Source: Macrostomum lignano (taxonomy: Eukaryota). Taken from it: 64,000 bases of DNA. The DNA is taken from the NCBI GenBank assembly GCA_002269645.1, contig NIVC01002507.1, positions 1 to 64,000 on the forward strand, given 5' to 3'. The stretch's first letter is position 1. Each line of letters opens with the position of its first letter. The position numbers and the translations under genes are program-made. Positions 33,691 to 64,000 of this stretch are shown piece after piece. The notes beneath the pieces are model-generated. The model did not search any database. It was not told the DNA's origin and saw nothing but the letters and a program-made list of their open reading frames with translations.

Positions 33691-34457
33691 CAGAGGCGTC
33701 ATGTAGAAAAGAAAGTAAGCTTTATGTAAAAATGAAAAAATGAAAAAATGTAAAAAAAAATAGAAGCATTATGTAAAAATCAATAAGCATCATGTAAAAA
33801 GAAGGGTCATGTCAAAAAGGAGCGTCATTTCAAAACTTAAAAAGCGTCATGTAAAATAAAAAAGCTTACTGTTGAAAATAAAACAAGCCTTCCGTAAACT
33901 CTGCTGTGACTCTTTGGAAGAATTTCTTAGATTTTAAGGTTTACGGGGGGGTTTTGAGATGTCAAGCCTTTTTGCTTTTTTTCAAGTCTTGTAAAAAATA
34001 ATAGGAGCATCATGTAAAAACACAAAAGAAACGTCATGCAAAACATAAAGGAAGCGTTATGTAAAAATAAAATGAAGCGTCATGTCAAAATAAAAGAAGA
34101 GTCACGTGAAACTGTGCTGTGACTCTTGAGGAGAATTACTGAGATGTTAAGGCTCACGGAGAATAACTGAGATGTACTCGTAATATGCTTATGAGGGATT
34201 TCTGAGATGTCTAGGTAAAATTCAGAAGCTACATCTAGTTTATTCACTTTTTTATTACATTCTTTGTTGGTTCCCCACGAGGGGCGCCAATAGAAGAAGC
34301 GTCATTTTAAACAGATGAAAGTAGATATAAAAGAAGAGTCATGTCGAAGTTAGGAGATTCATTTGGGAATCGCTACGATGTCAAGGCTTGGAGGGAATTG
34401 CTATAATGCTGTAATGTTATAATGACTCTTGGGGAGAATTACTGAAATGGCAATGCT

Positions 34458-34508
34458 TTAGGGTTAGTTAGGGCTAGGGTTAGGGTTAGGGTTAGGCTTA
34501 GGGTTAGG
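34458..34508 (+). repeat. Interstitial telomeric-type (TTAGGG)n tract
   Basis: About 8 perfect or imperfect TTAGGG units. Confidence 0.85.
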
Positions 34509-37500
34509 TTTGACAGATTTTTTAAGATTTCAAGGCTTATGGGATCATCGCTCAGATGTCAAGGGGGGGGTTTGATATGTTAAGACTTGTGGGGGGAGGA
34601 ATTGCTGAGATGTCAACGCTTACAAGCGATTGCTGAGGTTATTGCAAAGAGACACTACAATCTACATGTAGTTTATTAAAAGAACTTTTACTGGATTTTT
34701 TTGGCTCCCCAAGGGGGGGGGGCGCTGATTGCTAGTTAAATTCTGAAAATATGAACCACGAAAAGACAGGAGCAGTTAAAACTGAAAAATGACAACACTT
34801 GGGTTCGTATCATATCGGCCATCGGGTGTTTCATAGTCTAAACCAGTGATAACAATAATCAAACTGGTTTTAAAGAAACATTCATCTGCTTCTCATTTTC
34901 TATTAATGTTGCTATGGTGACCAAAGTATCCAGGTATCCAGGCGATATCCAAGTGCAGGTTTGTGGTGCCCCTATGACATCGCAGCGGCCAGGCCATAGG
35001 CGTTGTACATCCTGGGCTCCGCGTTCCGGCTGGACAAAGAATGCCGGCAGCCGAGTGGCCAGGCGGAAATCTCGCCCGCTGCACTCCGGCAACGGCAGAG
35101 CGCGCTGGAGCGATGGAGCCCTCGTAGCGATCGGGCAGAATCTGAATGAGAGAGCAAAATGTGTTTTTGACTGCATGGTTAGTTTCGTTGCTTCGATACA
35201 TGTCGGCTGTTTTGTGATATTAATTTACAGTTTATAAGGTTGCAACTTGTTTCATCAATGATTTAACGGCCCAGCGTAAAAAACTGTAGAATTTTAGCAA
35301 AGTAAATCACAGTATGTTGATTACTAGCCAAGGTAAATTCTAGTACCTAGGAAGAAGTACCTAGGTATCCAGGTAATAAAAGTTCCTAGGGAGCGCTGGG
35401 AGGAGTGCATGGCGCTCCCACCGGACCCCTAAATCCGCGCCCCTGGCTACAGCTGTTGCGAAAGATTTTAAAAGTGTCATTTTTAGTCAGTTACTTCAGT
35501 ATTTCTGTTTTACTGAACTTTTATACTCGAAGTACCTCGTAATTCAATTTACGAGGGGTGTTAATTCAGAAGTACAATTCATAAGTACAATTCAGAATTT
35601 ACGTTACAGTTGTAATCAGAAAAGGATTTATGGATTCCGACTGGGGGTATTTGCTTTAGACGAGTCAATTATGGATGGAATGTGCTCATCTGTTGTGGAA
35701 GGATGCAATAACTCGCTAGGCGGCACCGCCAAGCATCAGAACGTGGCCGCCGGCCGGCCATCGTCGCGGAACGCCATCTCAGCGGACAAAATCAGCGATG
35801 GCCTCGTTCAGTCGGGGAGGTGAACAGCGTCCCGAGTAGCCAAACCACGGCTAGCCAGCCATGAGGTCTGCTGGCAGCGGATTCTGTCACCTGCGGGTTG
35901 ATTGCGGCGGATTGCGTTTAGTGCAACCTGAGCAACTGTAAATTAAAATCACAAAACAGCCGATATGTATCGAAGGGCGATTCTGCTCTAGTGTAAACAG
36001 AATTCCAAACAATATTATCGCTTTGCTTAAAATGCTAACATTCAGTATCTCATTGTACTCCAGCATAAGATCAATTTATTTGACTACTCTACTCTTTATT
36101 TGACTTCCTAAACTAGAAAAGGAAATAAGATCATACAGCAACCACAATTCAAGTATTTCAGGGCCAATGAAGTGCCAAAGGGGGCGCCGGATTGCCAGAA
36201 TTTAACGAACGTGAGATTTTGAATATCCGCGTGAATTTAGATTTTGTTCAAATTCCTAATTTGTTTTAACTTTGCGCGGAAATTCAAAATTTATTTTTCT
36301 GCCTTTTTTGACATAATATTTACAAACGGATGCAGTATACGAGTATTCTGAAAATAAAAACAACTTCTAAAGGACAAGTCCAATCTATAGAAATTAGAAA
36401 ACTGGGACTCAGCGATTCTGCGAATTAGGAAATTAGCCTGTCTATCAATTTTAGAATAACTCGCTTGGTACCTTACTTTGCTAAGTTTGTTTTTCAAAAT
36501 CTTTTACGTTTAAAACGAAAATGGATGGCTAGTCGTCCTCACTTCTTGCGCCTGTACTATTTTTCTTTGACCAAATTTCCACCTTTAACATTATAGAAGA
36601 ATATAAGATTCCTAGCATATTGCAATTATAAGCTAGACATAAAAGAAAATACAATGAGTACAATGCAAATTAAGAACCAACGTACGTTTGCTTACCTTTG
36701 GAATAAAGAAATAACGAAAGCCTTACGAGCGTATTAAGAATAAATCTCAAGATCTTAAAGATTTAACTGGGTCAAATAAGTTAATAAATGATATGTATTA
36801 AAAAGTAGAAACTATACGTTGAATGAAACGCGTTTATTTAAAGAATACAATTCCTTGCAGCTTAAAACGAAATGCGTTCTGGGAGTTTTTTTTGGAAGAG
36901 TTGGGAAAGACAAAGAGCCGTCTTCATCCAGTATATATTAATATACGAGAATGAGTCACGGATGTGCAGTCTTTTCAGCTAGCTTCATTGCTAGTACAGT
37001 GCTAGTACGCTAGTGCGCACTAGCGTTCCACACTCACCCCACACCCACCCCACCTCTCCCTCTCCGCTCGTGGGCTGGCCCCCGCTAAGGGAGCCCATCC
37101 CACCGTGGGCTGGGTCCCGTTAACGGGCTATTTTTAGCGTGGGATGGGCTCCGCTAGGGGCGGGCCGTTAGGTGCCACTTCTGTACGTAGCATGCCAGGA
37201 AAGAGAAGAAAGAGAAGCAGAGGAGGCACGCTCGATCTGTATCGTGCAAATGCTTCCCGACCAAGCATGCACTGTTCTCTGTACACTCTGTTCCCTAACG
37301 CCAGTGCTGTACAAAAAAGAGAACTTCAGTTGTACAGAGAACTTTAGAGTTCTTTATTTATTGTTTTTTCGAAAGGTGGTGAAGTAGACAAATTCGCATG
37401 CATACAGATCCCACAAATAGCTCGTAAATAATAAGCCTACCGTTCGTTTCTAAAGCAGTCAACTGCAGGGAATGATTACAAGCATGTGACATTGGGTCTG

Positions 37501-39530: not shown

Positions 39531-42500
39531 CTAAATGAGAGCTGGTAGGCTTTCAAGCTGTTTTATGTGCGTGCTGTAGCCAGAATGAACCAGAGGTTTT
39601 TGGGCGTCGGATTGGCAGGCCCCCTCAGGCCCTCCTCCCTTTTCAACGGGGCTTGGGACCGTCTTTGGCGAAGCTGCTGCTTCACGTTGAAGGCATTGCC
39701 GTCGACTCACAAAAATTAGCGTTAAAGTAGAGAGAAATAACAATAGAATCAAACCAGCAGCCACAAATTGAACCATAATCAGCCTCATCCGTTCAGGACT
39801 GGGACTTGTTTGCTCTTCTTCCGCAGCCGGCTGGGCAGCCGCAAGCATCCAGTTGAGCACAGGTTGGCTCGAGTCTCCGCATCTGTTTCTGGCCGCATCC
39901 GGGAAGCTGATCAGAGCCGGAAGCTGCTCACTGCAGTCCGTAAAGCTCACCAGCCCGAGTACCTCACCATCAATGTTAAGATTGACAGCTCTGAGTGAAC
40001 CACAGGAAACTGAGGAGTTCGTACTCTGGACGGTATGGTTTCTGGAATTAAAGTGTAAAGAGTTGTGAAATTTGATTTAATTAGCCAGCCAATTGTTCCG
40101 ACAGCAGATAAACTGTTATTCTCAAGTTAAGAAACTCACAGCTTATCAGCATCCTCGAACTCAGCCATTTTGCAGCCTTCTGCCCCGCAGTTCAGGTAGA
40201 AGACTTTCTTGGTCCTGTGCTCATAGAACAGTCCGATGCGAAGCCTCTGTGCAAGACTCAGCGGCTCCTTGCTGCGGGTGCTCAGGCCGGAGCCGACGCG
40301 AGTTCGCTGGCCTGGAGCCGGTGTTCAAGGGGAGTGAAATTGTGCAAAAGTTAAGGTGTGCGGTCTACAACCCAAGGTAAACAGCGATGTTCAGTAAAGG
40401 ACACTGCATGCGTTCAATAAGCTGGCGCTGAAAACCATTTCTAAGTTACTGCAGGCGAGGAATTTACATCTCTCGTGCGTACTGCTCCTATTGTGGGTTT
40501 TGCGGCGGTTTAACATAACGGCTTTGTCGGCCTGAAACTTGTGAATATTATTCGATAATAATATGAAAACTATCGATGTAAAAGTAAGTGCAGGACAACT
40601 TTATGTTTCTGATTATGGCGCTATCTGGTATCATGGGTTATATTATTGATGCTGTGTGAAGCATGCATATTGCAAAAATAATGTAACTTAGGCCATAGGA
40701 GCTTGGGGTATGAGATGCAACAGCAAATAAAACGAAGGTTTGTAACTTGAAAACTTTATTGAAATAAGAGCGTATTTGGAAATGCAGTTTTTAATTTGCA
40801 TTAATTATTATTAATTAATTTGAAAATTCGCCAATTAATTCGGCTTAAATTACCTACAGAGTGTGATTAAACCTTTTAATCACTGTCTTGTTTATGATTG
40901 GTAATCTGGTGAAAAATGTTTTTTTCAGTGGCGAAAAGGAGCATTTTTGAGCAATTGTTCAAATTTGATGCATACGCTCGTACACCGCAGCACAATTATC
41001 AAGGCAAAACTTCTGGCTACGCATGCATTCTTTCTTTACCTGCGCTGTTACGTTGTAATAAGCTTTAAATATTGATTTAGTACTGACATGGCGGGTACAA
41101 GACCTGAATTTACCAGTTTTCTTGACCCGAAATGTTACTGTACTCTAAAATTTGGTGATAGACTTCAAGTTGATTCAATGCAAGCTGCACGCCACAGACA
41201 TTAACCGTAGGAATACCTCAGGGAATTTCTCAGTTAAAATTTCTCAGGGAAAGGCTCATTCGCACTCATTCTCAGGAGCCATTAAATTCAATAGCTAATG
41301 TGCAATGGAATATAGAATTTTACTTCATTTGATTGCAATTTAAATAAGCTTTTGTAGTGTAATTTAAGGTGCTATTTCTAAGATGGCTTTGTTTTTATCC
41401 CTAATCCATTCCTGACATACATGTAGTATATTGAGGGAAGTTCACTAACACAGCAGCACTCAGCCCTGTTTTAAGATATATAGTCTTCATGCACTAGTAA
41501 TTCGTACATTATTGTTTCATTTCGCTAAGTGTTTGTAAAGCCACCGGTTCACTCCAGCTTACTCTCTGTGACGAAGTTCTGCAGAGCCGCGGAGCTGTTG
41601 AAGCTGGCGAGCCTCATGACTCCGCTGTCAGCGCTCATCGCAGCGAGCTCAGCAGTCAGGTTCCGACGAACCGATCCTGTGGTGTAGCAGTTGCTCTCAA
41701 AATTTGTAATGTTTCTGCAGCAGAATCCCGGCTCCATCAGCCGAATTTGTAGACCCGGGATATTCGCTGAGCTTTTCCGATTCAGCCGGAATGAGACCGT
41801 CAGGTAGCTCCTACAGTTTTTATGTAGAGTGCAGTGGTTGAGTTCAATTACAGAATTATAGATTTCAGAGAATTGGCCAGCTCTATCGTACCCTTTGGTC
41901 AGTTGCAGCACGCGCAGCATCTCCAGTTCCACTGGCTTTGGCTCGCTTGTTGAAGGCGACGAGCAAGTGGCTGGAAATGCATTGGGATTTTTATTAGCAG
42001 GGTGAGAATGAAAGCATTTGGCCGGTTTTATTAAGTACCAGCTAGCATGGGTCAAAAACTACTGACTGCTTGTTTACGGTAATGGTTAGAACTGGAAATC
42101 GAAACCAATATCACCTGTATGACAGCAAGTTTAACGGTGCTCAAAGCAGCTTACAGTCCGAAGCCTTCGAGTGCAGTTCGTATCGCATCGGTTGCTGCTG
42201 TGCAGCTGAATCCAAAGATCTTGCCCACCTCCGCTGGCTTAAGTGCGCCTCCGTGTCAAAGCCAGTCAGAACCACAACGGCATTGTCAAGATGGTCAGTC
42301 AGAATCTTCCATTTGCAGTTGAGTCCTTCCTCAGGCACAGGGTCCGCGTCAGCTTTCGGAATGATTCGATCCTCAATGAACTCGAGTTTTTTGCTGAGCT
42401 GGAACTCATTGGTGATGCCACGCGGATAGCAGTACTCGTTGCCTGCAAGAGCTCTGTGGAGAAGAAGAATGAGGAGGAGTATATTTTTTTGTAAATGGAC

Positions 42501-46769: not shown

Positions 46770-47110
46770 GATGAGGAAGTGAAGCTGGATTTCGAGTAAT
46801 CAGACTCCATAATTATGGATAGTTTGGTCTCTTTTGCAAGCGCGGCTATTGGCTGATCAAATACGAGCTAGAGTTGACTGGCGAACCAAAATCAGACTCA
46901 TTCTTTTAGGACTGCGACTTGCTTGTTCTTAGCTCGTATTCTGCAGTTGGCTGGGCAGCCGCAAGCATCCAGCTGAGCACAGGTTGGCTCGAGTTTTCTC
47001 TCTTAATTATCATCTCTTGTTGGCTCTTATCATCAATGATAAGATTGACAGTTCTGAGTGAGTCACAGAAGACTGAGGAGTTTGTACTCAAAGCAGTATG
47101 GTTTCTATGG
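46770..47110 (-). pseudogene. Relic of receptor-like gene exon 6 (copy F), TM segment deleted
   Basis: Translates as STNSSVFCDSLRTVNLIIDD..SSQPVLSWMLAAAQPTAE, homologous to E6 with internal deletions. Upstream exons are absent. Confidence 0.75.
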
Positions 47111-47126
47111 TACGTTTGGTACTTTT

Positions 47127-47778
47127 GGCAGTCAAATTGTGGCAGTCAAATTGTGGCAGTCAAATTGTGGCAGTCAAATTGTGGCAGTCAAATTGTGGCA
47201 GTCAAATTGTGGCAGTCAAATTGTGGCAGTCAAATTGTGGCAGTCAAATTGTGGCAGTCAAATTGTGGCAGTCAAATTGTGGCAGTCAAATTGTGGCAGT
47301 CAAATTGTGGCAGTCAAATTGTGGCAGTCAAATTGTGGCAGTCAAATTGTGGCAGTCAAATTGTGGCAGTCAAATTGTGGCAGTCAAATTGTGGCAGTCA
47401 AATTGTGGCAGTCAAATTGTGGCAGTCAAATTGTGGCAGTCAAATTGTGGCAGTCAAATTGTGGCAGTCAAATTGTGGCAGTCAAATTGTGGCAGTCAAA
47501 TTGTGGCAGTCAAATTGTGGCAGTCAAATTGTGGCAGTCAAATTGTGGCAGTCAAATTGTGGCAGTCAAATTGTGGCAGTCAAATTGTGGCAGTCAAATT
47601 GTGGCAGTCAAATTGTGGCAGTCAAATTGTGGCAGTCAAATTGTGGCAGTCAAATTGTGGCAGTCAAATTGTGGCAGTCAAATTGTGGCAGTCAAATTGT
47701 GGCAGTCAAATTGTGGCAGTCAAATTGTGGCAGTCAAATTGTGGCAGTCAAATTGTGGCAGTCAAATTGTGGCAGTCA
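47127..47778 (+). repeat. 14-bp satellite (GGCAGTCAAATTGT)~46
   Basis: Perfect tandem 14-mer; accounts for the 14-aa periodic ORFs in all three plus frames. Confidence 0.98.
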
Positions 47779-50700
47779 ACTGCCACAGACTCAACTAAAT
47801 GTGCACGAAACTTAACTCATTGTCTCTGTGTACTAACCAAGAGAAGTTTCTCTGCTTCTTGCAATATTTGCAAATTTTGATGGGGGGTAGCAACCGTGGC
47901 AAACGCATGATTTTATTTACAGGTGAAGCTGCGGTAACTCTGTGGCAAGTCCAAGTGAAACCCACGGCTTTTCCGCGGATTTTTCTTCTGTGAATAAGTC
48001 TCCAAGTACTTTTAAAAGGTCATTCCATGGCTTTTCCATGGAAATTTAGCCGATACAATACAGGAATGCGGATCTATGCCGCCGAGTACTATGCGAGGAA
48101 AGAGAAGCAGAAGGACGCACGCTTCTTGTACCAAAGCAGTTTCCAAAGCAGCATGTACTGTTCGCTGTACGCCTCCCCCCCCCCAAAGTCAAGTGCTGTA
48201 CAAAAAAGGAACTTCAGTTTTGTTCCAAGTTACTTTAGATTTTTTTGTTGTTATTTTGAAAGGTTGCGAAATAAATGAATACGCAATATATGGTACAGTT
48301 CCCACAAAAAGTTCGTAGTTAATAGACTCATCTCACGGCTCAAAGCACTCAACTGCAAGGAATAAGATTATAAGCATGTGAAATTACGTCTGAGTCCGGC
48401 GGATGTCCCTCTCGTCTAAACTAAGGGATTAAAAGTTTATTTTTGTAATCTTTCTTTTAGTTTAGTTTCACAACTGCGAGCTCAAGGTACTGTACGTGTG
48501 GTGCACAAACAGCATTAATTTCGCTGCTCTCATTTTGTACCTTAGGCGGACATCTTAAGCTAGAATTTTCGGGCACTGGGTATGTTTCAAATTACCCCAT
48601 ATTTCATATTTTCCAGATTTCACATCCCTGAATTTTACATTTCTTACATTTTACATTCCCCAAATATTACGTTCCCAAATTCTACATTTCTTTGATTTCC
48701 CTGGCTTCGTAAAGAAGCATCAATAAGATTACGCTGTCAGATTACTTAGACGGCAGCGGCACAGGGCGCGCCTCTGGACCAGGTCGTGAAGGAATGTCAC
48801 GTCGCCGACCGAATCCGGTACATTGGCGTCAGCCAGCAGGCTGCAAACAAGGCGCGAAGCCATGATACGCGGCCTGCCTGCTTGTGCCAGCTGGACGCCG
48901 CCCTCACCCCATGTACGCAGGGGCGAACCCCAGAGCTATTTTTAGCAACACATCTGTAGAGTACAACTTGGGGATTCTCTGGTCTTTTCTGAACGCTCCT
49001 TGATTTTTAAAACGTTATTAACAAATTTTTTTCCTGTTATCTTATTATTGCATCGCTGAAGGACTTTCAAACACACTGGCCTCCAAAAGCCCTATTATGA
49101 GCGCGAGGCTCACAGCTCAGAATTCGCAGTACCGAATATTATTCAAAGCAGTGTATCTTATAGTCAACAAGAACGCATAGGCACAATGCAGAAAATGAAT
49201 ATTTTGAGTTGGATAGAGTTAGCGCTCCTGCAGTTTCTCTCTGTGCTGTTGTTAAGGCAACCATCAACCCCTGCATTTTGCTGGGAGTCTGTGTCACGCG
49301 TTCGTAGGCTGCTAGCTTGGCCCTCAAATCTCAGCTTCGTTATTGTCCTTTGGGAATTGAGGTCGGCTTTCTTAAGCTGGTCTGTTTGGATAGCTTCATG
49401 GTCAAGACGAGTAGAGGTCGTTGTTTTTCCACTTCGATGCAAGCTCTTCTCACCACCAAGCTCTTTTTCGGTGCTTACAGCTATTAAAAGAATAAAAGAA
49501 ACTGCAGATGACAAAATAAACATATTTTGTAACTTATATACTAATTTTAATTATCTTACCTTCTATTTTCCTTCTATCTAATTTCTTTCCACTTTCTTAT
49601 CAATCTCTTCTTTGATTAAAAAAGATCAGAAGCGTGGCCAGGGAAGGGCCCTCCAAAAAGGCTGGCAAAACTAAAGCCCCTTGGTGCTAAAGCCCCTTGG
49701 TGCTAAAGCCCCTTGGTGCTAAAGCCCCTTGGTGCTAAAGCCCCTTGGTGCTAAAGCCCCTTGGTGCTAAAGCCCCTTGGTGCTAAAGCCCCTTGGTGCT
49801 AAAGCCCCTTGGTGCTAAAGCCCCTTGGTGCTAAAGCCCCTTGGTGCTAAAGCCCCTTGGTCCTGGCGCCTCTCATTGCAGTCGTCCCTGAAAGGCACAG
49901 CCCCAATAAAAACCCTAGCTGAAAACCCTGATACGATAAACTCCAAACCAGGTCCGGGAATTTTAGAACTTGACGATAAAACATTTCCGTCGAATTCTGA
50001 CTCCCACCCACTGGGTAGAGATGCAGCTTCAAGACACTTTGTACAAAGAAATGAAGCCCGAACACTAACTACATCTAGATTTAATACTCTGTTGTCTAAA
50101 GAATAAAAAAGGTTAAATTCGATTCATTCTAATAATCCCGTACAGAAATCCGACACACGTGACGCCGCAGGTAAACGCAGGTACTTTTACAATACAGGGA
50201 CGTTCAGCCAACGTCGTTATTCGTCGGTGCAATGCGCCCATTTGTCGGATTCTATGGGCACTCGGTTATGATCTTTTCATAATGAAATGCATTCAATACA
50301 TTCAATTATTCTTCCCTGTTATTCTACTTACCTTTATTCTTATTCAACTCAGGGATGACTTACAGGCAGTTTTTCGATGCCTACTCATCAAGAATATTCT
50401 TGAAAGCAGCTCTCTGACTACCGTAATCACCGATAATTGAGATATTAGATTGCACAATTCTTGAATTACTGCGTTTCTGCTGGATTGTTCAAATGACAGG
50501 TAAATCAGTTTTTTATTATACGCTCGTAAATTCACACTAATTCAGGTACACTTGCATTAAAATCATAAATTTTGCAAAATGTTAAGTATACAACTGCTAC
50601 GAGTAGATTAGTGCGAAACACTCAGTCTCAATGCACTCGTTTATCAGCCACTATTTAATTAACTCAGCTAAAATGCATTCTAAACAGTCTACCATCATTT

Positions 50701-53700
50701 CAAACTTCGTTAACGGTAGTGAATAGATAAAGAGTGACAAACATTAGTAAATATGCTTTAGGGAGCAACTTTGGGAAGCAATGAATGCCAAATAATAAAA
50801 TGTACAGAAAGTTTACACATAAAATAAACATTACAATGCCCGATGCGAGCGTACGAGCGTATTTGCAGTGCGTTCCATATTTATACAGCAAAGTTATTAT
50901 TCTGCAACAAAAGCGGCATATTTACAAAGCAATTAACTGTTATATATAGCAGCATGTTTCTCACTCAGTGGGCTGTGTTGAAGCTCTTCATTGAACTTCC
51001 GAAGACTTTCTTTTTGCTGCTCAGGAGGCAATTAAAAGATTTTACTTTTTAGTTCACAAGTTAACAGCAGCAGCAACATCCCCAAAATACGGTTTTGTTG
51101 GATCTTCCGATGAGTAAGTGAAACTTGATTTCGGCTGATCAGACTCAACTTAGTCTGAGTTATGGATAATTCTGTATCTGTTGCTAGCTCTGTTATTGGC
51201 TGCTATTTTTCAAACTTTATATGCATTTTTCAAGCAGGAGAACACTAATAATTTTGCTCCGGTCATGGGGAGTCACTCAGACGGAATTCGTCGCACTCTC
51301 GAAAATGCCCGTCGTGCAGGTAAAAGCCTTTGGTTTTCTATTCCTTAAAAACATAAATTAATACTCGCAGCTTTTCTTGCCGGCTTGATGCTGCCGTCAG
51401 GACATGTACAGTACATAAGTATACAATATTACAATTATGACATGGTAATTTCAGTCGGTTGGTTATGACATTCCGAATTTGTAAAATCAATGCAGCAGCT
51501 ACAGCCTATTTAATTAAGCTACAGCATATTTATGCAAATAATCAATTTTCCCTACAGAATTTTTACAATCTTACAGCTGCATCATTATTAAGTTTCATAA
51601 TTATTCTTCTTCCTCATTTTTGTTGTATTTATTTTTATTTAATTTAGGCATTAATTTAAGGAAGTTTTTCGATTGCCTACTTTCTAGATTATTCTTGGAA
51701 GTACGACGTATCTCTCTGACTACCTTAATCATCATTCACTTAGTTATCAGCTTGCATAATTCTTGAATAGCTTCATTTCTGCTGGATTCTTAAAGTGACA
51801 GGTTAATCAATATTTTTTTTATAAAATTTCGTTGGCATTTGCAGCAATATACGCTTGTAAATTCACACCAATTACAAACTTGAGTTTCGCAGACAGATAA
51901 AAAGATAAACTACAGATAAGATGAGATACAGATAAAATGGTTAGGTTAGTAGGTCAAATGTTAAACAATGCCCAAAATTGTTCATGCACTCGTTTTTTCA
52001 CCACTGTTTAATTCAGCAACAAACTAAGCAGTCAATCCTTATTCCACACATCTTTCGCGTTATAGTGCAGTGAAAAAATCAGATGTGTGGAAGGATAAGG
52101 TAAAGCAGTAAATGAATTGTAAGTAAATGAAATATTTATAATTTGTTGCATAATAGTGACAGCATAAGTATACAGTGATCACTCGCAGCTGGCAGGCCAC
52201 GTCATCTGCGCCGAGGCCTACTGTCCGGAGCCGGTGCAGGAGGTGCTGCTACTTACGTTGCAGGCACCCTACCGGCGGGACAGCGAGGACTCGGCGCTAC
52301 GTCGACTTTCTGCGTTCCCTTCGAAGTCTGCGTTCGCTAAGCTTCGAAGAGCGCCATCTGACGCTGCTTTTTGCGAACCGGCAGCGTACTCTGTTGTTGT
52401 TGTTGTTGTAGCCTTTGTCAGGTTGATGGGTGTCACTACGTCCGTAATGGGCACATGGGTTGACTTTGAATTTTACCCCGGGATTCAGCTACGACGTCTG
52501 AGGCGCGACGAACCAAAGATTTTTCAGAGTCGGATTGGCAGACCTCAAACCTTCCTCCTTTTTCAACCGGGCTTAAGAGCGTTGCTGCTGTATATTGAAG
52601 GTTCTTCTTGTGCCTTCTTCTCACAAAAAGTAGCGTCGCAGTAAAGATAAGTGCTAACAGAGTCGTAGCAAAAGCTCCAAGCAGAACCATGCTCAGCACA
52701 CTCATCTCTTCAAGACTGGGACTTAGTCTCTTCTTAGACTTAGACTTAGTCCCTTCAGTCTGTTCTTCTTCCGCAGCCGGCTGGGCAGCCGCAAGCATCC
52801 AGCTGAGCACAGGTTGACTTGAGTTTCCGCATCTGTTTCCTGCCGCATCCGGGAAGCTGATCAGAGCCGTAAGCTGCTCACTGCAGTCCGTGAAGCTCAC
52901 CAGCCCGAGTACGTCACCATCAATGGTAAGATTGACAGCTCTGAGCGAGCCGCAGGAGACTGAGGAGTTCTTAGTCTCGACAACATGGTACCTGGAATTC
53001 AAGTGTCAGGAGTTTGTGATTTGTATGTGACTTGACTAGCAAGCAAGGTTAACAAAATTTTGAGACTGCTGATTCTCAAGTCAAGAAACTCACAGCTTAT
53101 CAGCATCCTCGAACTCAGCTATTTTGCAGCCAGCTTCTGCCCCGCAGTTCAGGTAGAATACCTTCTTGGTCCTGTGCTCATAGAACAGTCCGATGCGAAG
53201 CCTCTGAGCGAGATTCAGCGGCTCCTTGCTGCGGGTGCTCAGGCCGGAGCCGACGCGAGTTCGCTGGCCTGGAGCCGGTGTTCAAGGGGAGTGAAATTGT
53301 GCAAAAGTTAAGGTGTGCGGTCTACAACCCAAGGTAAACAGCGATGTTCAGTAAAGGACACTGCATGCGTTCAATAAGCTGGCAACGAAAGCCATTTCTA
53401 AGTTACTGCAGGCGTGGAATTTACCGGTACATCTCTCGTGCGTTACTGCTCCTATTGTGGGTTTTGCGGCGGTTTAACATAACGGCTTTGTGGGCCTGAA
53501 ACTTGTGAATATTATTCGATAATAATATGAAAACTATCGATATAAAAGTAAGTGCAGGACAACTTTATGTTTCTGATTATAGCGCTATCTGGTATCATGG
53601 GCCATATTATTGATGCTGTGTGAAGCATGCATATTGCAAAAATTATGTAGCTTAGGCCATAGGAGCTTGGGGTATGAGATGCAACAGCAAATAAAACGAC

Positions 53701-55436: not shown

Positions 55437-57150
55437 CTACTGTGCTGCTGCAGTGTGCCAATTCTGAAAGCATGGGACAGCACACAGCCCGGGCTCTCCT
55501 GGGCAACCAGCGCATACGAACACCGTTCTCTTGGCCGCACCATTGGTGTAGCAGACTCTGCATCGCTTTGTCGGCCTCGCATTAGCATCTGTCGGCGGCA
55601 GCTTCGATGGTGCGTGCTGTGAGACGGCCCTGCGCTTCGATGTATTTAGACGTTTGCCCCCGCTTGTCTGCTCCATGAGAGTGTGTAGATCGCAGCTTAC
55701 AAAAATTCAACGAATTTGATATCGCTTCCTCCTTGGCAGTTGCAGATCCAGGCATTACGGACCAACTGCAGTAAAATGTGGGACCCGAGCTTCTGGTGCC
55801 ATCTGTAGGTTCTTCTCCCCGCACTGTAAGGCTGCAGTGCTGCATCAAGGCAATGAACGCCTCCCATGTACTTATTGTACTGCAGCACCTAATTCGGCTT
55901 TAAAACTGACTCCTCCGCTCCGCCTCGGATCACTCGCCTCACTTCCGTGCTTTCAGCAACACCGTGCGTGTCCAAAAAGTACACAGTTTTGCGACCGCTT
56001 GCCTTCCTGTCTACCAGCTTGACTGCGAGAACATCGCCGCGGCGCATCTGGGAATGACTGACGGGTTGCAGGGGCAGCACTTTCAGCTCATTCGGCACAC
56101 CTCGATTGGGCCTCACCGTCCCAGTCAGTAAGGTACTGCGTTCCAGCAGAAACTGCGCCAGACGGAGCGATGTGAACCAGCTGTCACAGAAGACCTTGTA
56201 CCCTAGGTCCAGCAAATTTTTACTCAATTCAACGACGATCTTCTCGCTCATCGACAAATTCCCGCAGTTTAATCCATCTCCAAACTTGTCGTTATCCTGC
56301 TTAGCAGCATGTACATGAAAGTTCCACAGCAAACCTGTCGAAGCTTCCGTCAAGCAGTAGACCTTGCTGCCGAGTCTGACACGCTTGTTGGGCATGAACT
56401 GCCGGAAAATGAGCCTGCCCTTGTGCATGACCAGTTCCTCATCGACAGACGCCTCTTGACTTGGGCTGTAATTTGCTTGGCAAATATGGCGGGCAATGTT
56501 AAGAAAACGTCGAATCTTTTTCAAGGAGTCCTGGCGGTTGACGGTGGTGCAGTCGTAAAATCGAAGGACTGATAATATCTGCACAAACCGATCCCTTCCG
56601 GAAGTATTCGCCGCCGTAGAAGTCTCCCATGGACCAGTACATGTGCGTTTCGGGCTTCTTCACAAGACCCATGTACAGAACGATTGCTAGAGACTTCTTC
56701 ACCTCATTGTCGGTACACGGTCTCCAAGTTGATAGCAAATTGGGAAGAGCTCCGTCCTGATCTTCAGCTGTCAAATGTTGAAGCTCCATTTCAGCTCGGG
56801 CGTTGGTCCGAATGGCAGACACCAGATCAGCGGTGAGAAAGTGCTGCAGATAGAATTGCACCTGGGCCATTTTACCTTCAGGAGCTTGTGCTTGGATGTC
56901 TGGGTTCAGGCCAGGTACAGCGAGGAATTCGGGCAGATCGCTGAGACGCGAATCTTCACAATCGCGAATCTTGAGCAGCTGTCCATTCATTCTCGTTGGC
57001 GAACTCGACTCCATGCTCAGCTACTTCCACATTACTCTCATCATCTTCCTCGTCCAGCAACTCTCCATCGACACTCATATTCGCTGTCGCTGCCATCGCT
57101 GGTGAAAACAGGGGAACCTTCCATAATTGCAATTGCAGCCTCGTCAATGT
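55437..57150 (-). mobile_element. Decayed piggyBac transposase (PGBD/DDE_Tnp_1_7-like)
   Basis: Split minus-strand ORFs: acidic N-terminus; LAIVLYMGLVKKPETHMYWS; SVDEELVMHKGRLIFRQFMPNKRVRLGSKVYCL; VFCDSWFTS; TGTVRPNRG; YNKYMGGVHCLD (third Asp region altered); C-terminal RCRVC..VCAGCPGEPGLCAVPCFQNWH Cys-rich domain. Multiple frameshifts. Confidence 0.92.
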
Positions 57151-57918: not shown

Positions 57919-58886
57919 GAGTCAGCTATACTATTTATGCAAAGGCGTCAAGTTTGATTTCATAATCCCTACTACTCGTATTATCAACTCTCTTTTCGTT
58001 TGCGACCAGACAGCTAAAATTGATGCTCAAAGGGTCTGCTGCCTTCTTTAACAATTAACATTATTTCACAGCTTATAGAAGATTCTCTAACTGTGCTCAA
58101 AGTTTTGCTTACAGTCCGAAGCCTTCGAGTGCAGTTTGTATTGCATCGGTTGTTGCTGTACAGCTGAAAATACAGATCTTTTCCACCTCCGCTTGCTTAG
58201 GTGAGCCTCCATGTCAAAGCCAGTCAGAACCACAACGGCATTGTCAAGATGGTCAGTCAGAATCTTCCATTTGCAGTTGAGCCCTTCCTCAGGCACAGGC
58301 TCTCCGTAAGTTTTAGGAATGATTCGATCTTCAATGAACTCGAGTTTTAGGCTGAGCTGGAACTCATTGGTGTTGCCACGCGGATAGCAGTACTGGTTGC
58401 CTGCCAGAGCTCTGAAGAAGAATGGGCGGGACAGTAGATTTATTGAAAATGGACAGTTAAAAGTTACTGGCCTACTTAATATTTGGTCTCCTAAACGTTT
58501 TTTCTAAGCTATTTTTGGCATAATGTGTTGTTGATTATGCGATTAATTGGCTTTTCGGTCGGTACTTCAGGTATTTCTTGCATATAGACCTGTTAAGTAA
58601 TATTTTTTATATTTTAATAATATATGGAATGTATTATTATCATTAGCTATGCTCTATACGCATGAACGTGTAGAAATGCCATCGATTTTGGGGGCACCAT
58701 TCTAGCCGAACTCAATACGATAAAATGGGTGAGTATCTACTTACTGTCCTACTGATAGTAAAAAAGACAAGAAAATTTCGTGTAAAGAACAAGTGCTTTT
58801 TAACCAGCTACAGTACTATGATATAATGTAATTGTCTTTAGTACAATAATGTACGTTGACAGTGCCAGACTCACAAGGACAGGCCC

Positions 58887-59462
58887 CATATTCGAAATCC
58901 ATCAGTAAAATCTACTCCCTTATTCGAAATCCATCAGTAAAAGCTACTCCCATATTCGAAATCCATCAGTAAAATCTACTCCCATATCCGAAATCCATCA
59001 GTAAAAGCTACTCCCATATTCGAAATCCATCAGTAAAAGCTACTCCCATATTCGAAATCCATCAGTAAAAGCTACTCCCTTATTTGAAATCCATCAGTAA
59101 AAGCTACTCCCATATCCGAAATCCATCAGTAAAATCTACTCCCTTATTCGAAATCCATCAGTAAAAGCTACTCCCATATTCGAAATCCATCAGTAAAAGC
59201 TACTCCCATATTCGAAATCCATCAGTAAAAGCTACTCCCATATTCGAAATCCATCAGTAAAAGCTACTCCCATATTCGAAATCCATCAGTAAAATCTACT
59301 CCCTTATTCGAAATCCATCAGTAAAATCTACTCCCATATTCGAAATCCATCAGTAAAAGCTACTCCCATATTCGAAATCCATCAGTAAAATCTACTCCCT
59401 TATTCGAAATCCATCAGTAAAAGCTACTCCCATATTCGAAATCCATCAGTAAAAGCTACTCC
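58887..59462 (+). repeat. 32-bp tandem array (CCATATTCGAAATCCATCAGTAAAAGCTACTC)~18
   Basis: Direct repeats with no unique spacers; abuts the AGTAGT terminus-like sequence. Confidence 0.97.
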
Positions 59463-59562
59463 AGTAGTAGTATGTTATAAGGGGCTGCGCCACACTTAAT
59501 TGCTCGGGCGCATTGCGCGCCAGCTCGCTGGATGACTCAGCCCCTTATAACATACTACTACT
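59463..59562. mobile_element. Maverick/Polinton-type terminus in a 25-bp perfect inverted repeat
   Basis: AGTAGTAGTATGTTATAAGGGGCTG ... CAGCCCCTTATAACATACTACTACT. (AGT)n ends are characteristic of Polintons. A degenerate second copy of the loop plus right arm lies at ~60402-60479. Confidence 0.7.
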
Positions 59563-59977
59563 ACCAGGAGGTCATGGATTCAAGTGGGGGTGTGATAAAT
59601 ATAAAAATACATATATCTGTGACTGAGGGTGTTGAGGGTGAGGGCATGTGGGGGCATTGGCCTGTGGTATATTTCACAGAACACAGAATTTCCGGAATTT
59701 TTATACTTTTAAAAAGGGGGGGTGCCCTCGCCCTCATGCCCTCACTCATTTTGAAAATCACTAAAAACAGGTGAAAAATGACTAAAAACAGGTGAAAATG
59801 GTCTGAAAACAGCGATTTTTTGTGATTTTCTAATTTTTTTAAAAAGTGCAATTTTCACGATTCCAGCTCTAAAACCATGAGAAAAGTTGGATCCTCGGGT
59901 CAATTTAATGCAATTTCAGGTATATACAATATGAAAGTGTCATCCAATTCAACGATAGTAAATTATATATATATAAA

Positions 59978-60109
59978 ATGGCCTTCAGTAAACCAATATT
60001 TCTAGGAAATGCTTTAGATATTCAGTCAGCTATAACAAAACTGCCACTTGTCAACTCTGCAACAATGAAAAGCAGCACTCAACATTTCTATTGGCTTGCT
60101 GAAACATGA
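59978..60109 (+). pseudogene. Truncated paralog of the PLA2-integrase N-terminal leader
   Basis: MAFSKPIFLGNALDIQSAITKLP matches MAFNKPLFLGSALDIQSAMTKLP at 61372, including the upstream TATAAAATG; homology ends at ~60047. Confidence 0.8.
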
Positions 60110-61371
60110 ATAAATTCTGATGCAGATTTTGCACAATAGAATTACTTCTGAATTGCAAAATAAAATTCTCCTTCACCCTGTGGGACTGAATGTATTCGAA
60201 TTGTAGACAGCATTGTTATCACGATGACTAAGAATCATGGCTTCTTCCATATCTTCATCACCTCTGTCTTCTATTCTCTCTGACTCACTCAAAAACCCTC
60301 CAGCATCATGCAAAGAATTAAAGGTTTAGATTAGCTGCGAACAGCCATTCATCAACTCCCCTCCAAGCTGCTACAGCATGCATTTGCAACCCACTTCAAT
60401 GCCACACTTATTGCTCGGGCGCATTGCGCGCCAGCTCGCTGCCGCTGGATGACTCAGCCCCGTATAACACACTGCTACTCACTCACTCTAGAGAGAAAAA
60501 ATCTGTCACTGCCACAGGGCAGTGGCAAGGCAGTGGCAGGGCAGTGGCAGGGCAGTGGCAGGGCAGTGGCAACCAATTAGCGGCTGGCATAAGACATTTT
60601 AGACAGCATTTAAGGGCATACCCAAAATAAAGTATCCGCAACAAGTGTCCTCTGCTTAAATTATCAGTTTTCATTCCGAACGAACAGAATGCCCGGAAAT
60701 CCAACTAGGCGTGCTAGAATACTTGTGAACACACAAGAGAGAAACAATTTGAGAGGTTTGATTCACACACAATACCCCAATACTAGCTTCGTCACGTCTA
60801 CAAATGAGAATCAATTCCTTGAGCATTATCGCGTATACTTCGACAAAATTGAGAACGACATTGCGATGCTTAGGCTAGTTAAAAAACCATTGCGAAGGAT
60901 CGTTCTATCTTAGAAAATCAACGCCAACTAGAAATCGAGCGCTCGCTAGATGTAGACGTTCCAGAGGCACCTCCGACATACGAGGATGCTCAACAACAAG
61001 CTGCTCAAAACCAAGCTGCTCAAGACCAAGCTGCTCAAGACCAAGCTGCTCAAAACCAAGCTGCTCAAGACCAAGCTGCTCAAGACCAAGACATGAGTGA
61101 CTAAGGACTATCACTGTGACTGTGACTAAGGAGGACTGTAAGGACTGTGACTAAGGATTGTCATTGTGACTGTGACTAAGGATTGTTATGCATCGTCTTA
61201 TAAGTTTCTTTTAAAATATACCAAGATCTTTTATCAGCCATCTGTTTTGTGTAACATGTCGCTTTGGATTATTGTCTCGACTTGTCTTAAAATTCAGTCT
61301 ATTAAGTACTCAATGGAATGTATACAAACACTTTACAAGTAAAAATAAAGAAATAAAAAAATCTCTATAAA

Positions 61372-61503
61372 ATGGCCTTCAATAAACCACTATTTCTTGG
61401 TTCTGCATTAGACATTCAGTCAGCTATGACAAAACTGCCACCCATCTTCTCTACTGGAAAATATCCTGGAGAATTTCATATTCCAGGGTATTCTTTTGCA
61501 GGT
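61372..61503 (+). CDS. Exon 1 of Maverick PLA2-integrase fusion (44 codons)
   Basis: MAFNKPLFLGSALDIQSAMTKLPPIFSTGKYPGEFHIPGYSFAG, the N-terminal half of a parvovirus-type PLA2 Ca2+ loop. It joins in frame to CCC GGT (PG) at 62395. Confidence 0.9.
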
Positions 61504-62394
61504 TACCTTGTGGCCTGAGTGAGGAAAGTCAATGTCCTTGCTAGTCATCGAGCAGAGCTCGCGTCCCTTCAGGGCGATCGATAAGCACTTGTTAAATTTT
61601 TTAAAGTAAAAATGGAGCAAAAAATTCGAGAAATTCTCTTGAAACCAATTGACGACAAGGTGGGGTATGACCAAATTCTTTGCGATTTATTTCAAGAAGA
61701 GCTAATAATTTCACACAAGATTAAAGTTATTCAAATGAGACTAGGTAGACTATATGAAGTTTTAGCAGAAAAATATTTTGGATTCGAAAAGGTAAAAAAG
61801 ATTGACCTGGTTCACGTTGAGCGAAAGATTGCATTAGAGCTTAAATCTTCTGATAACACAGACAATTCCTCAAGTCGTGAAAGTAACTATCGGAAACTAT
61901 TAGACTATAAAAAGTCTAATCCCACCTACCAGTTGTTTTATGTATGCATCAATAAAACTGCAAACGAACCTAAGAATATTTTACTAGACAATGGAATCAC
62001 CCTTAAAACAGGAGAATTTGCATTGAAATTTCTTTATCGGGATAAATACACAAACATTATAACCAAGGTTAAACAAGTGCTTAGTGAATGGCGACACCTT
62101 CAAATTGCGGGAACTCCTTCAATAGCCTCAAGTACCACTTCAGCTGAGAAATCTTCTGAAGGAACACAGGTAATTCCTGTTCCCAACGGTAACAAGCTTG
62201 AGGACATGGTGGAAATCCGCAGCCAAGCTCCTAAGTCCGATCTTTGATCGAGTACCTATGGTACGTCCATTAAAGTTGACAAGGATATGGAGAAGGTTCA
62301 GAGACTTTATGGAGGTGGGGCTGAAGGATCTGGTCAATCCTGATGATGCCTTAAGATAAAGTCCAGCCTCTTTCGAAAGACTGAGGATCAACTG
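61504..62394 (+). ncRNA. Group I self-splicing intron, subgroup IC1-like (891 nt)
   Basis: The 5' exon ends in U and the intron ends in G. P AAATTGCGGGAA 62102-62113; Q AATCCGCAGC 62214-62223; R GTTCAGAGACTTTATG 62296-62311; S AAGATAAAGTC 62353-62363. P1 CAGGU/GCCUG (61499-61503/61513-61517) with U.G at the splice site; P3 CACCTTC/GGAGGTG; P7 with bulged A62302. Confidence 0.93.
61612..62247 (+). CDS. Intron-encoded PD-(D/E)XK restriction-endonuclease-like protein (candidate homing endonuclease), 211 aa
   Basis: Motifs MRLGRLYEVL ... KIDL ... IALELKSSDNTDNSSS fit the E..D..(E)xK catalytic pattern. The ORF starts in a peripheral intron loop and reads into the ribozyme core. Family assignment is from recalled motifs only. 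Confidence 0.7.
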   Translation: MEQKIREILLKPIDDKVGYDQILCDLFQEELIISHKIKVIQMRLGRLYEVLAEKYFGFEKVKKIDLVHVERKIALELKSSDNTDNSSSRESNYRKLLDYKKSNPTYQLFYVCINKTANEPKNILLDNGITLKTGEFALKFLYRDKYTNIITKVKQVLSEWRHLQIAGTPSIASSTTSAEKSSEGTQVIPVPNGNKLEDMVEIRSQAPKSDL

Positions 62395-63621
62395 CCCGGT
62401 ACAAATTTAGACAAGAGACTCAATCCAATTACAGACCGGCCTCGGTATGACAGTCTACCAATTAACCCAATCGATTGGACTGCTTACTATCATGACAAAA
62501 ACTATAGAGATGCTGAAAACACTTCTTCAAATCCAGAGGAAGCTCTAGCAAAGAAGCATATAGCTGATGAAAAAATGATAGCTGATTTAGATGCTATTCC
62601 AACCAGTGACTTGTCTGTGAAAGAGAGACTCATTCGAAATCTAGTAAAGCGTATTATCAAGGCTAAAGTTCGGTTTGGATTAGGCATTCATACTCACAAC
62701 CCCAACAATTGTATAGACTGTCTAACAATTTATGGTAAGGGTCTTAGCTATGAAGATGCAGTAAAATTGCATAAAGAATATCGAAAGCCAAGAGTATTTA
62801 GAAAAATGATTCACTATGCAAAAGACACAATTTGGCATGCAGATATCATTATCCTACCGCCCGAAAGAGGTTACAAATATGCTCTAACTATCATAGATGG
62901 TTTTACACGTTACGCCTGGGCAGTTCCTTTGAAAACAAAGACGGGAGCGGAAGTTGCAGAAGCTTTCCAAAAAGTATTTAAGGAATCAGGAAGACGATCA
63001 GAGAGACTTTGTGTAGATGAAGGCAAGGAGTTTTATAATCAGCATATGTACAAGCTATACTCGTTTTCAAAAGACAACATTAGAAAGAAGGATGAAAGGG
63101 GTGAATATATAAACAAGATGTTTTCAATTTATGGCGAGTCCAAGAATGCAATGATTGAGAGGTTCAATCGTACTCTCACAAATAAACTCTGGTTTGAATT
63201 TGATCTACAGGGTAATCAGAAGTGGCTCCACACATTGCCAGCTATTGTTGAAAAATACAACAACACAATCCATTCTGAGATTCTGATAACTTCTTCAGAA
63301 GCATCTAAACATCCTGAGCGAGTACCAAAGCCAACTTTCGAGTATTCAAATGAGAAACCAAACTTCAAAGTAGGTGACAAAGTTCATATCTATAGATATA
63401 AGGAGCACTTTGAAAAGGGTCGAAGAGGATATTGGAAAATTTCAGAAGTGTTTAGGATAAAGAAAATAGTTTACTCCAATCCCATAACCTACATTATTGA
63501 GGATGAGAATGGAGAAGAAATCATTGGATCATTTTACAAATCCCAGCTTCTACCAGCAAATTTTTCAACTAAAAATGAGCGCCTATCGAACAAACTGCAA
63601 ACGGGCGAAAGGTCAGATTGA
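62395..63621 (+). CDS. Exon 2 of PLA2-integrase fusion: PLA2 catalytic half plus Maverick/Polinton retroviral-like DDE integrase
   Basis: PGTNLDKRL..PINPIDWTAYYHDKNY (DxxAxxHDxxY), then WHADII / YALTIIDGFTRYAWAVPLKTKT / VDEGKEFYN / IERFNRTL / YNNTIHS / FKVGDKV / TYIIEDENGEEIIGSFY. The DDE triad appears intact. Spliced product is 452 aa. Confidence 0.93.
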   Translation, partial: PGTNLDKRLNPITDRPRYDSLPINPIDWTAYYHDKNYRDAENTSSNPEEALAKKHIADEKMIADLDAIPTSDLSVKERLIRNLVKRIIKAKVRFGLGIHTHNPNNCIDCLTIYGKGLSYEDAVKLHKEYRKPRVFRKMIHYAKDTIWHADIIILPPERGYKYALTIIDGFTRYAWAVPLKTKTGAEVAEAFQKVFKESGRRSERLCVDEGKEFYNQHMYKLYSFSKDNIRKKDERGEYINKMFSIYGESKNAMIERFNRTLTNKLWFEFDLQGNQKWLHTLPAIVEKYNNTIHSEILITSSEASKHPERVPKPTFEYSNEKPNFKVGDKVHIYRYKEHFEKGRRGYWKISEVFRIKKIVYSNPITYIIEDENGEEIIGSFYKSQLLPANFSTKNERLSNKLQTGERSD

Positions 63622-63997
63622 AACGTCTGATTCACAACTACTAGCTGATAAAGAGGGTGAAGGAATTGGTGATATGATCAGTGGTGTCACAAACTTTTTA
63701 TCAAATCATGGAAGTAAAATTGTTAGTGGAGCTGATGCAATAGGTAAAACAGCTACCACAGCGAAGAACATATTCGATGCGAAGAAATCATACAGTGACA
63801 TGTCTAAAGCAGGTGAGGAACTGGAATATATTAAAAAGAAACGTAGAGATAAAGAAGCAAAGAAAAGAATGGAAGAAGAGCAACAGATAGCTTCTCAATC
63901 AAATAAGGCTATTCAAGATATTGTTAAAAAGGCTCTAGGAACAGCAGAACAGTCTCAAGTGTCTTTGAGACAAGGCAATGGTTTGAAGAAATTCTGA
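63575..63997 (+). CDS. Small Maverick ORF, putative virion core/membrane-active protein (140 aa)
   Basis: TAAAAATG start, GEGIGD and C-terminal GNGLKKF GxG motifs, amphipathic-looking segment IGDMISGVTNFLSNHGSKIV, charged helix. Resemblance to Maverick/adintovirus core proteins is inferred. Confidence 0.55.
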   Translation: MSAYRTNCKRAKGQIETSDSQLLADKEGEGIGDMISGVTNFLSNHGSKIVSGADAIGKTATTAKNIFDAKKSYSDMSKAGEELEYIKKKRRDKEAKKRMEEEQQIASQSNKAIQDIVKKALGTAEQSQVSLRQGNGLKKF

Positions 63998-64000
63998 CCT

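Follow-up and report, generated by a model that had tools for sequence, protein, structure and literature searches.

The stretch of DNA analysed here (the window) comprises positions 1 to 64,000 of the forward strand of contig NIVC01002507.1 from the Macrostomum lignano assembly GCA_002269645.1, and it covers the first 4.5 kb only (59463–64000) of an element that is best read as a Maverick/Polinton (adintovirus-type) provirus. Near the right-hand end of the window, a gene encoding a parvovirus-type PLA2 joined to a retroviral-type integrase is interrupted by a group I intron, which itself contains an open reading frame (ORF) for a candidate homing endonuclease. The parts of the gene and its intron are as follows.

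61372–61503, + strand: exon 1 of the PLA2-integrase gene, 44 codons, the last encoding the first Gly of the GPG loop (39/44 residues identical to the N-terminus of the relative P0003)
61499–61517, + strand: P1 helix, an 8-bp hairpin with the U61503·G61513 wobble at the 5′ splice site and the internal guide sequence at 61510–61517
61504–62394, + strand: group I intron, 891 nt, IC1-like, P5abc present, last base G (RF00028; ends by homology)
61518–61542, + strand: P2 hairpin, 8 bp
61612–62247, + strand: PD-(D/E)XK nuclease, Eco47II-like, 211 residues, candidate homing endonuclease (PF09553; fold)
62091–62385, + strand: ribozyme core with P3, P4–P6, P5abc (62126–62203), the P7 G-site, P8 and P9 (cmscan alignment; P/Q/R/S motifs)
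62395–62690, + strand: PLA2 part of exon 2 (PGT.., HD at 62491–62496, AD helix), closing with a KxxFGLG motif (PF08398; alignment)
62691–62750, + strand: variable, lineage-specific linker with H..NNCxxC and a second GxG (alignment of 32 relatives)
62751–63621, + strand: retroviral-type integrase part of exon 2, no chromodomain (PF00665, E 5.6e-10)

The intron was recognised by cmscan through a match to RF00028 at 62025–62385 (82.6 bits vs. a gathering score of 50, E 1.7e-19), which is the sole Rfam family at gathering level in the window; further RNA families in 58000–64000 gave chance-level matches only. The 5′ start proposed by the RF00028 model itself is wrong because a large insertion parts P1 and P2 from the core. 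The intron was instead delimited as 61504–62394 because homology to P0003, an uninterrupted relative that sets the splice points independently, fixes both ends: residues 1–44 of P0003 correspond to exon 1, and from residue 45 onward 245 of 330 positions (74%) match the frame starting at 62395. In the PLA2 GPG loop (the calcium-loop motif), the insertion separates the Gly codon from the Pro codon. With the U·G wobble in P1 at the 5′ splice site and G62394 as the terminal G at the 3′ splice site, both ends have the form known for group I introns.

The predicted secondary structure is consistent with this delimitation. P3 is fully paired, and P4, P6 and P7 are paired, P7 showing a change on both sides relative to the Rfam consensus, while P5abc (62126–62203) forms a three-way fold that none of 200 shuffled sequences equalled. 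The P1 hairpin (− 9.6 kcal/mol) was equalled by 1 of 200 shuffles and the P2 hairpin by 3 of 200, both stretches having been picked by eye, which flatters the z-scores; the fold of the whole 5′ part of the intron is no better than shuffles (z − 0.79), and only P1 and P2 taken in isolation are better. A P5abc extension with an A-rich bulge is a criterion for subgroup IC1, and the present intron points to that subgroup. At the level of sequence, the identity of the insert as a group I intron and its boundaries are established. Searches of 50,697 phage records with blastn and tblastn, and of plasmids, gave no match for the intron or the nuclease, and a phage origin of either was dropped as being without support.

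Removal of the intron would join the 44 codons of exon 1 to the 408 codons of exon 2 (62395–63621), giving the 452-codon frame that a first-pass annotation of this DNA had predicted. That annotation had also noted that the unspliced frame from the ATG at 61372 stops at ..FAGYLVA*, with which the frame translation agrees, and that a complete PLA2 in the window copy needs intron removal, as the split of the domain within its GPG loop confirms. Exon 2 by itself matches PF08398 (PLA2) over residues 1–66 with 19.5 bits (E 0.0012), under the cut-off of 23.9, because the intron splits the domain; the uninterrupted P0003 reaches 40.5 bits. An alignment of 32 relatives, picked for coverage and spread from the best 120 of 1113 database matches, displays the GPG loop, the HDxxY helix (with the HD dyad at exon-2 residues 33–34) and the AD motif of a parvovirus-type PLA2. 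The integrase triad D150/D208/E255 of exon 2 is present (codons 62842, 63016 and 63157), and the integrase of P0003 matches that of foamy virus (E 1.2e-4). The earlier description of the integrase as intact holds for this DDE triad, but the window copy also departs from the aligned relatives by a substitution at an otherwise invariant position and carries a C-terminal extension.

Both PF08398 and PF00665 were found in 60 of the best 120 relatives, many of the others being shorter pieces. The two-domain architecture is kept down to ~33–38% identity, including a coral protein with a chromodomain, and the three nearest ESM clusters (184, 111 and 72 members), mostly Preplasmiviricota, hold both domains. 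On the evidence of these relatives, the PLA2-integrase fusion is a genuine, conserved family trait, as had been expected from the single copy, and the possibility that it is an artefact of decay, by which the first-pass annotation would have been refuted, was rejected. Automatic annotation of database entries already shows this combination of two domains.

The linker text, including its two GxG motifs and the HxH..CxxC cluster, is present as previously quoted. Thirty of the 32 aligned relatives retain the first GxG, at the close of the PLA2 domain, and in most of them its P4 residue is K/R. A search with the PLA2 domain only (108 matches) recovered this GxG in 46 of the 107 matches examined, a count from a crude pattern that missed many through mis-anchoring, and at least six of these GxG-bearing matches soon end in a basic tail, i.e., are stand-alone PLA2s. 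The first GxG is a general PLA2 boundary, and it may well be a processing site or simply mark where the domain ends. The adenain protease has the consensus (M/I/L)xGX/G or (M/I/L)xGG/X, from which the mostly basic P4 of the first GxG departs and which is fitted by the second GxG (IYGKG); this second motif occurs in only four of the 32 relatives and not in P0003. K/R-x-G-x-G-like stretches also occur in the following ORF of the element (63577–63997), and GxG is frequent by chance. The CxxC of the linker is likewise found in four of the 32 relatives, with none in the 74%-identical P0003, and its reading as a conserved zinc motif or a retroviral HHCC domain was rejected, the cluster being lineage-specific and its spacing too short.

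The 211-residue ORF within the intron was absent from the first-pass account. It matches PF09553 (RE_Eco47II) with 27.3 bits (cut-off 25.9, E 3.1e-6), and this profile is matched by 15 of 15 family members (E ≤ 0.1). In the alignment of the family, which includes 14 relatives at 45–63% identity, E76 and K78 are invariant and E49 and D65 nearly so. The structure model has a predicted local distance difference test (pLDDT) score of ~90 for residues 1–165 and below 50 for residues 165–211, and this disordered tail overlaps the ribozyme core and is simply the core read as codons. Nine of the 14 relatives likewise run into ribozyme-core sequence, four in the frame of the window ORF and five in the frame that gives DTFKLRE in the window, and therefore probably sit in group I introns too. 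Two of the relatives pair with PLA2-integrase matches on contigs of equal size: P0002/P0122 (4853) and P0022/P0131 (14527). As a separate observation, the nuclease lineages P0126–P0129 and P0135 vs. P0122–P0125 read the ribozyme core in different frames, and the two lineages correspond to two types of intron 3′ end among the PLA2-integrase matches.

A VIA fold search placed EcoO109I first (Z 9.7, root-mean-square deviation 3.9, 166 residues aligned; next row 6.6), and the Foldseek top five include EcoO109I and AvaII. As leads only, most of the atlas look-alikes are viral proteins without a name, beside sets of HinfI, ApaLI, Eco47II and EcoO109I at 0.90–0.92, and Nucleocytoviricota are commonest in the Eco47II set. 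At the sequence level, a search of known structures gave none below E 0.14, the NCBIfam comparison gave nothing consistent and BFVD gave weak nuclease-like matches only; I-Ssp6803I is not among the listed sequence or fold matches, an absence that is compatible with kinship to it. Several results weigh against a close kinship with these restriction enzymes: the identity over the fold is 13%, and specificity need not persist at that distance; the PF09553 score is barely above its cut-off; a profile of the family against a real Eco47II-family protein gives a weak match (probability 18%, E 0.0013), and against a TdeIII-family protein an insignificant one (E 0.13). A nuclease ORF of Eco47II/EcoO109I-like fold within the intron is nevertheless shown by the sequence.

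A GTDB scan yielded 1 locus (L001) out of 32 candidate stretches. It is without a group I intron, and its relative of the nuclease (33% identity over 74 residues) is free-standing beside a C5 methyltransferase (region 5741–7300). Two points count against the overall explanation given below: this relative is itself broken by a frameshift, and no C5 methyltransferase was found beside the intron nuclease in the visible 59463–64000. The intron nuclease would work like a restriction-modification component but is not filed as one. The L001 contig is filed as a bacterial metagenome-assembled genome and carries XRN and GlmS genes; it looks giant-virus-like. Among four plasmid relatives of the L001 methyltransferase, two flank an Eco47II-family nuclease, one a TdeIII-family nuclease and one none.

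Most relatives of the PLA2-integrase gene are uninterrupted at the intron site, and foreign sequence stands directly before PGT in 7 of the best 120. P0002 and P0004 start with SSLFRK.E.L, which is the 3′ end of the window intron in the exon-2 frame, and in P0008, P0013, P0025, P0049 and P0090 Met replaces the Gly before Pro, as is expected from an insertion that ends in G before the Pro codon. P0008 and P0009, both from contigs longer than 34 kb, are identical at 386/386 residues from this Pro onward, and only P0009 reads through the site. Presence and absence at the same site are therefore seen at the protein level for P0008 vs. P0009 and for P0002/P0004 vs. P0003. P0003 lies on a 1.6-kb contig and could represent an intron-less allele or a spliced transcript, and a point against optionality is that the introns of the relatives are deduced from protein ends alone. 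An optional, mobile intron is the best reading of these comparisons, and an optional intron with its own endonuclease carries the signature of a selfish homing intron.

It is quite probable that the locus holds a mobile homing group I intron with a restriction-enzyme-derived endonuclease, which has invaded the PLA2-integrase gene of an animal Polinton. The RNA would self-splice with a guanosine cofactor and restore the 452-codon frame, so that the insertion would be nearly neutral. The nuclease would be made from unspliced or excised RNA, in which the ATG at 61612 opens the next long frame after the stop of the 48-codon frame. Its ancestor would be a restriction enzyme of the GGNCC type, with restriction-modification genes of giant viruses as the probable route, and the nuclease would cut the uninterrupted allele at the Gly-Pro codons of the PLA2 loop, whereupon repair from an intron-bearing copy would spread the intron (homing) and the insertion would remove the site. 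Intron-bearing elements would have lost their other GGNCC sites. The fusion protein would probably be packaged and then processed by a protease of the element itself, with cleavage at the GxG behind the PLA2 domain.

The predicted target follows from the enzymes that the nuclease resembles. EcoO109I cuts RG^GNCCY (PMC3089450), and an Eco47II homolog has been assigned to GGNCC (PMC10305163). Gly-Pro codons (GGN CCN) always contain GGNCC, and the uninterrupted insertion site therefore has this sequence; it is absent from both intron junctions, the insertion destroying the site. GGNCC was predicted from the Pfam match before any counting. In the element (59463–64000) it occurs 0 times vs. 5.9–6.6 expected, the lowest of 16 interrupted palindromes, and all 12 of 12 equal-sized host blocks contain 2–12 copies. 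The L001 contig has 23 GGNCC vs. 83.75 expected, compared with 116 CCNGG vs. 84 and 114 GCNGC vs. 100. Several counts point the other way. The host part of the window is itself mildly depleted (90 vs. 105.5 expected), GGNCC is only third among 256 patterns, with GTNCA/TGNAC above it, and CGNCG is likewise missing from the element (2.2 expected) and from locus L004 (3.1 expected). GGNCC is low in 4 of 4 plasmid loci, including one without a nuclease neighbour, and the element was counted over its visible 4.5 kb only. Moreover, host DNA, with 91 sites in the window, would be at risk from a true 5-bp cutter that has no methylase beside it.

On balance, the target of the nuclease is fairly likely to contain GGNCC, and a truly short site is put forward tentatively. 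A conventional homing enzyme with a long site, which merely shares the restriction fold and for which GGNCC is incidental or the core of a longer sequence, has a substantial though less than even chance. Every homing enzyme characterised so far recognises a long site (PMC3384342, PMC3679873), a short-site cutter would be toxic where the host genome offers ~1 site per 650 bp, and the identity of the nuclease to restriction enzymes is low. However, a long-site enzyme does not need the loss of every GGNCC in the element, and the domain spans only ~165 residues with no added DNA-binding module. This alternative is compatible with the remainder of the homing-intron explanation. As a side observation, Gly-Ala stands in place of Gly-Pro at the insertion site in P0010, P0017 and P0021 (3 of the 32 aligned) and in P0144 and P0185 (from the PLA2-only search); these variants, which are without GGNCC, possibly escape the intron nuclease.

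The remaining features of the window concern the element's left end, its other ORFs and the host sequence beside it.

59463–59562, + strand: left element end with a 30-nt inverted repeat (arms 59463–59492 and 59533–59562, 93% complementary)
59978–60109, + strand: truncated duplicate of the beginning of the PLA2 gene (20 of 27 residues as in exon 1; direct repeat)
60410–60479, + strand: partial second copy of the terminal segment (direct repeats with 59499–59562)
60689–61098, + strand: element ORF with QAAQD/N repeats and a frameshift near 60910 (three-frame translation)
63577–63997, + strand: next element ORF, 140 residues, overlapping the integrase 3′ end (ORF list)
4958–5536, 13545–14024, 20368–20823, 26135–26731, 39531–39950 and 52436–53002, − strand: host family exons (mutual relatedness)

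The Maverick/Polinton left end at 59463 consists of the AGTAGTAGT terminus and the 30-nt internal inverted repeat, and AGTAGTAG occurs once in the whole window, at this end. The most frequent end motif of Mavericks is (AGT)2 (PMC8097293), and it is present at 59463. The integrase is of the Polinton type (rve, PF00665), with its nearest ESM clusters in Preplasmiviricota; no polymerase, protease or capsid gene lies within the window, which ends 4.5 kb into the element. A 32-bp host satellite (58885–59462) abuts the element, which is thus inserted at the end of a satellite array, and the first 100 bp of the element make up a hairpin whose ends read AGT and ACT. In the duplicate at 59978, the first 27 codons resemble exon 1 and then diverge, the copy stopping short of the intron site. 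The copy at 60410–60479 suggests a rearranged or nested element end, i.e., a nested or rearranged insertion at 59463–60479. The QAAQD/N-repeat ORF contains a 15-bp tandem array (60987–61090), and a Pfam search with its first piece gave no match. The 63577–63997 ORF, for which the Pfam search was without significant match, has an amphipathic-looking segment besides the motifs KEGEG and RQGNG, and may encode a protease-processed virion accessory protein.

Farther to the left, a piggyBac-type transposase (PF13843) lies at 55889–57014 on the − strand, split across two frames, 2.5 kb from the element; its top match is from Macrostomum lignano (81%, among the 5 matches listed, longer proteins only). 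By this one indirect indication, a flatworm is the probable host. The host part also holds a tandem gene family on the − strand with at least six related exons and a transmembrane-like stretch, of which the single exon tested gave no match in Pfam, and long tandem repeats at 32050–33700 (~21–22-bp units), 47100–47800 (15 bp) and 58885–59462 (32 bp). An AT-skewed region at 32000–35000 was considered as a further piece of an element and rejected, the region being satellite.

The left end bears on whether the locus is a decayed fossil, with intron and nuclease inactive in the window copy and the 452-residue product never made. The rearranged end with its truncated duplicate gene start, the frameshifted upstream ORF, the substitution at an otherwise invariant integrase position and the C-terminal extension are all in keeping with decay, and most Mavericks of vertebrate genomes are degraded (PMC8097293). 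However, both exons and the nuclease ORF are open with catalytic motifs intact, and the ribozyme helices pair, with a compensatory change. A fossil locus is rather unlikely, and the argument applies to the window copy alone, not to the family.

The first-pass annotation had viewed splicing as a purposeful gate. As a selected regulatory step, it would time or limit the supply of PLA2 (membrane penetration) and of integrase; no complete PLA2 can come from the window copy without intron removal, and unspliced RNA would favour the nuclease, so that splicing would switch products. Such a gate is improbable, however, given that most relatives are uninterrupted, that identical proteins exist with and without the insertion (P0008 vs. 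P0009), and that the intron carries a nuclease of its own and, in the manner of homing introns, occupies the most conserved motif. The dependence of PLA2 and full-length integrase on splicing is most likely a by-product (cost) of parasitism rather than a designed gate.

Separate production of the integrase from the ATG at 62575, with the fusion being incidental, is very unlikely. This ATG had been described as the only downstream one in frame, but it is the first of five (62575, 62806, 63046, 63118 and 63151). Gene callers begin several database proteins at Met 62575, and internal initiation is possible there; against this, most relatives have this Met as a normal part of their PLA2 ADxxM helix, and the fused frame is kept to ~33–38% identity, coral elements with a chromodomain included. 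Finally, removal of the insert by the spliceosome, for which a GT at 61502 and in-frame AGs ending at 62410 and 62434 are available, is hardly credible and was rejected, such joins deleting the GPGT loop, while homology places the ends at U|U and G|C rather than at GT-AG and a full group I core is present.

The homing intron and the fused gene can be compared with several known systems. RF00028 introns have been described in protist polinton-like viruses (PLVs), reportedly from a few hosts only (Paulinella, Desmodesmus and Rhodomonas) (Bulzu et al. 2025, PMC12220804), where, as in the window, they interrupt protein-coding genes of nuclear-integrated Polinton-related elements. However, the PLV introns are 309–376 bp long, occupy a short gene that precedes the one for the capsid and have no annotated nuclease (PMC12220804), whereas the window intron has an apparently animal host, 891 nt, a PLA2-integrase gene and a restriction-type nuclease. 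Nuclear ribosomal DNA (rDNA) IC1 introns share with it the P5abc core, an endonuclease gene in a peripheral loop near P2 and optional occurrence, but are confined to rRNA genes of microbial eukaryotes and encode His-Cys box enzymes with 15–20 bp sites (PMC3679873), in contrast to a provirus mRNA and a PD-(D/E)XK enzyme here. Restriction-fold nucleases from group I introns are represented by I-Ssp6803I (PD-(D/E)xK) and I-Bth0305I (EDxHD), which are bacterial/phage enzymes; I-Ssp6803I resembles PvuII and reads 23 bp (PMC3384342), whereas the window nuclease matches the Eco47II family and EcoO109I. With the Eco47II family, EcoO109I and AvaII it shares the fold and the E..D..ExK arrangement followed by an NTxNSS-like motif, and their GGNCC-core sites correspond to the insertion point. 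Unlike those Type II enzymes, it is found in an intron of a eukaryotic element, no cognate methyltransferase was found in 59463–64000, and its specificity is predicted.

The PLA2 domain resembles adintovirus PLA2X, a parvovirus-VP1-like PLA2 in the Polinton virion module with a proposed membrane role (Starrett et al. 2021, PMC8502044). In adintoviruses, a pX-like domain comes after PLA2X (PMC8502044); in the window, the integrase stands in that C-terminal place, fused to the PLA2. The words 'fused' and 'fusion' are absent from the accessible main text of Starrett et al. 2021 (PMC8502044). PhiPA3 gp210, a phage HNH nickase, is an intron nuclease able to attack co-infecting intron-less relatives (PMC11620839); for the window nuclease, such interference is only a hypothesis.

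Within their accessible text, Yutin 2013 (PMC3671162), Stephens 2024 (PMC11131425), Barth 2024 (PMC11296320), Jeong 2023 and two preprints of 2026 mention neither a PLA2-integrase fusion nor a group I intron in an animal Polinton. The literature search, with subscription journals and supplements outside its reach, returned no report of group I introns in animal Mavericks, Polintons or adintoviruses, nor of a PLA2-integrase fusion, the supplements of Starrett 2021 and Bulzu 2025 being those that could bear on both claims; nothing useful was found on adenain-type processing of a GxG boundary. A selfish intron with a restriction-enzyme-like DNA cutter was thus not found described for animal nuclear DNA or animal Polintons.

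A more far-reaching proposal, advanced speculatively and with less than even confidence, is that animal Polinton introns are armed with a domesticated short-site restriction enzyme, used for homing and against co-infecting intron-less Polintons (or host DNA). If true, GGNCC would be fixed by the essential Gly-Pro, so that rivals could not shed the site without changing their enzyme, and intron-bearing elements would purge all other GGNCC sites. Restriction-style warfare between viruses would then occur, together with group I splicing of mRNA, in bilaterian cells, and Polintons would replicate side by side as genuine viruses, perhaps at a distance from the host's chromatin.

Nuclear group I introns have been placed only in rRNA genes of microbial eukaryotes (PMC3679873) and animal self-splicing introns in mitochondria (PMC4676843), and intact vertebrate Mavericks have been reported without introns (PMC8097293). 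Those published boundaries, and that of a few protists for Polinton-related group I introns (PMC12220804), would no longer hold if an animal Polinton does carry a homing group I intron within a gene for an mRNA. Homing needs two elements per cell together with DNA breakage and repair, and the recent presence/absence of the intron therefore hints at actively replicating animal Polintons. The nuclease would be a new lineage of homing endonucleases, with a GGNCC core predicted for its target where the Gly and Pro codons meet. The conserved PLA2-integrase fusion suggests a route by which the integrase may enter the particle, and the spliced junction would provide a specific RNA marker for the activity of the element.

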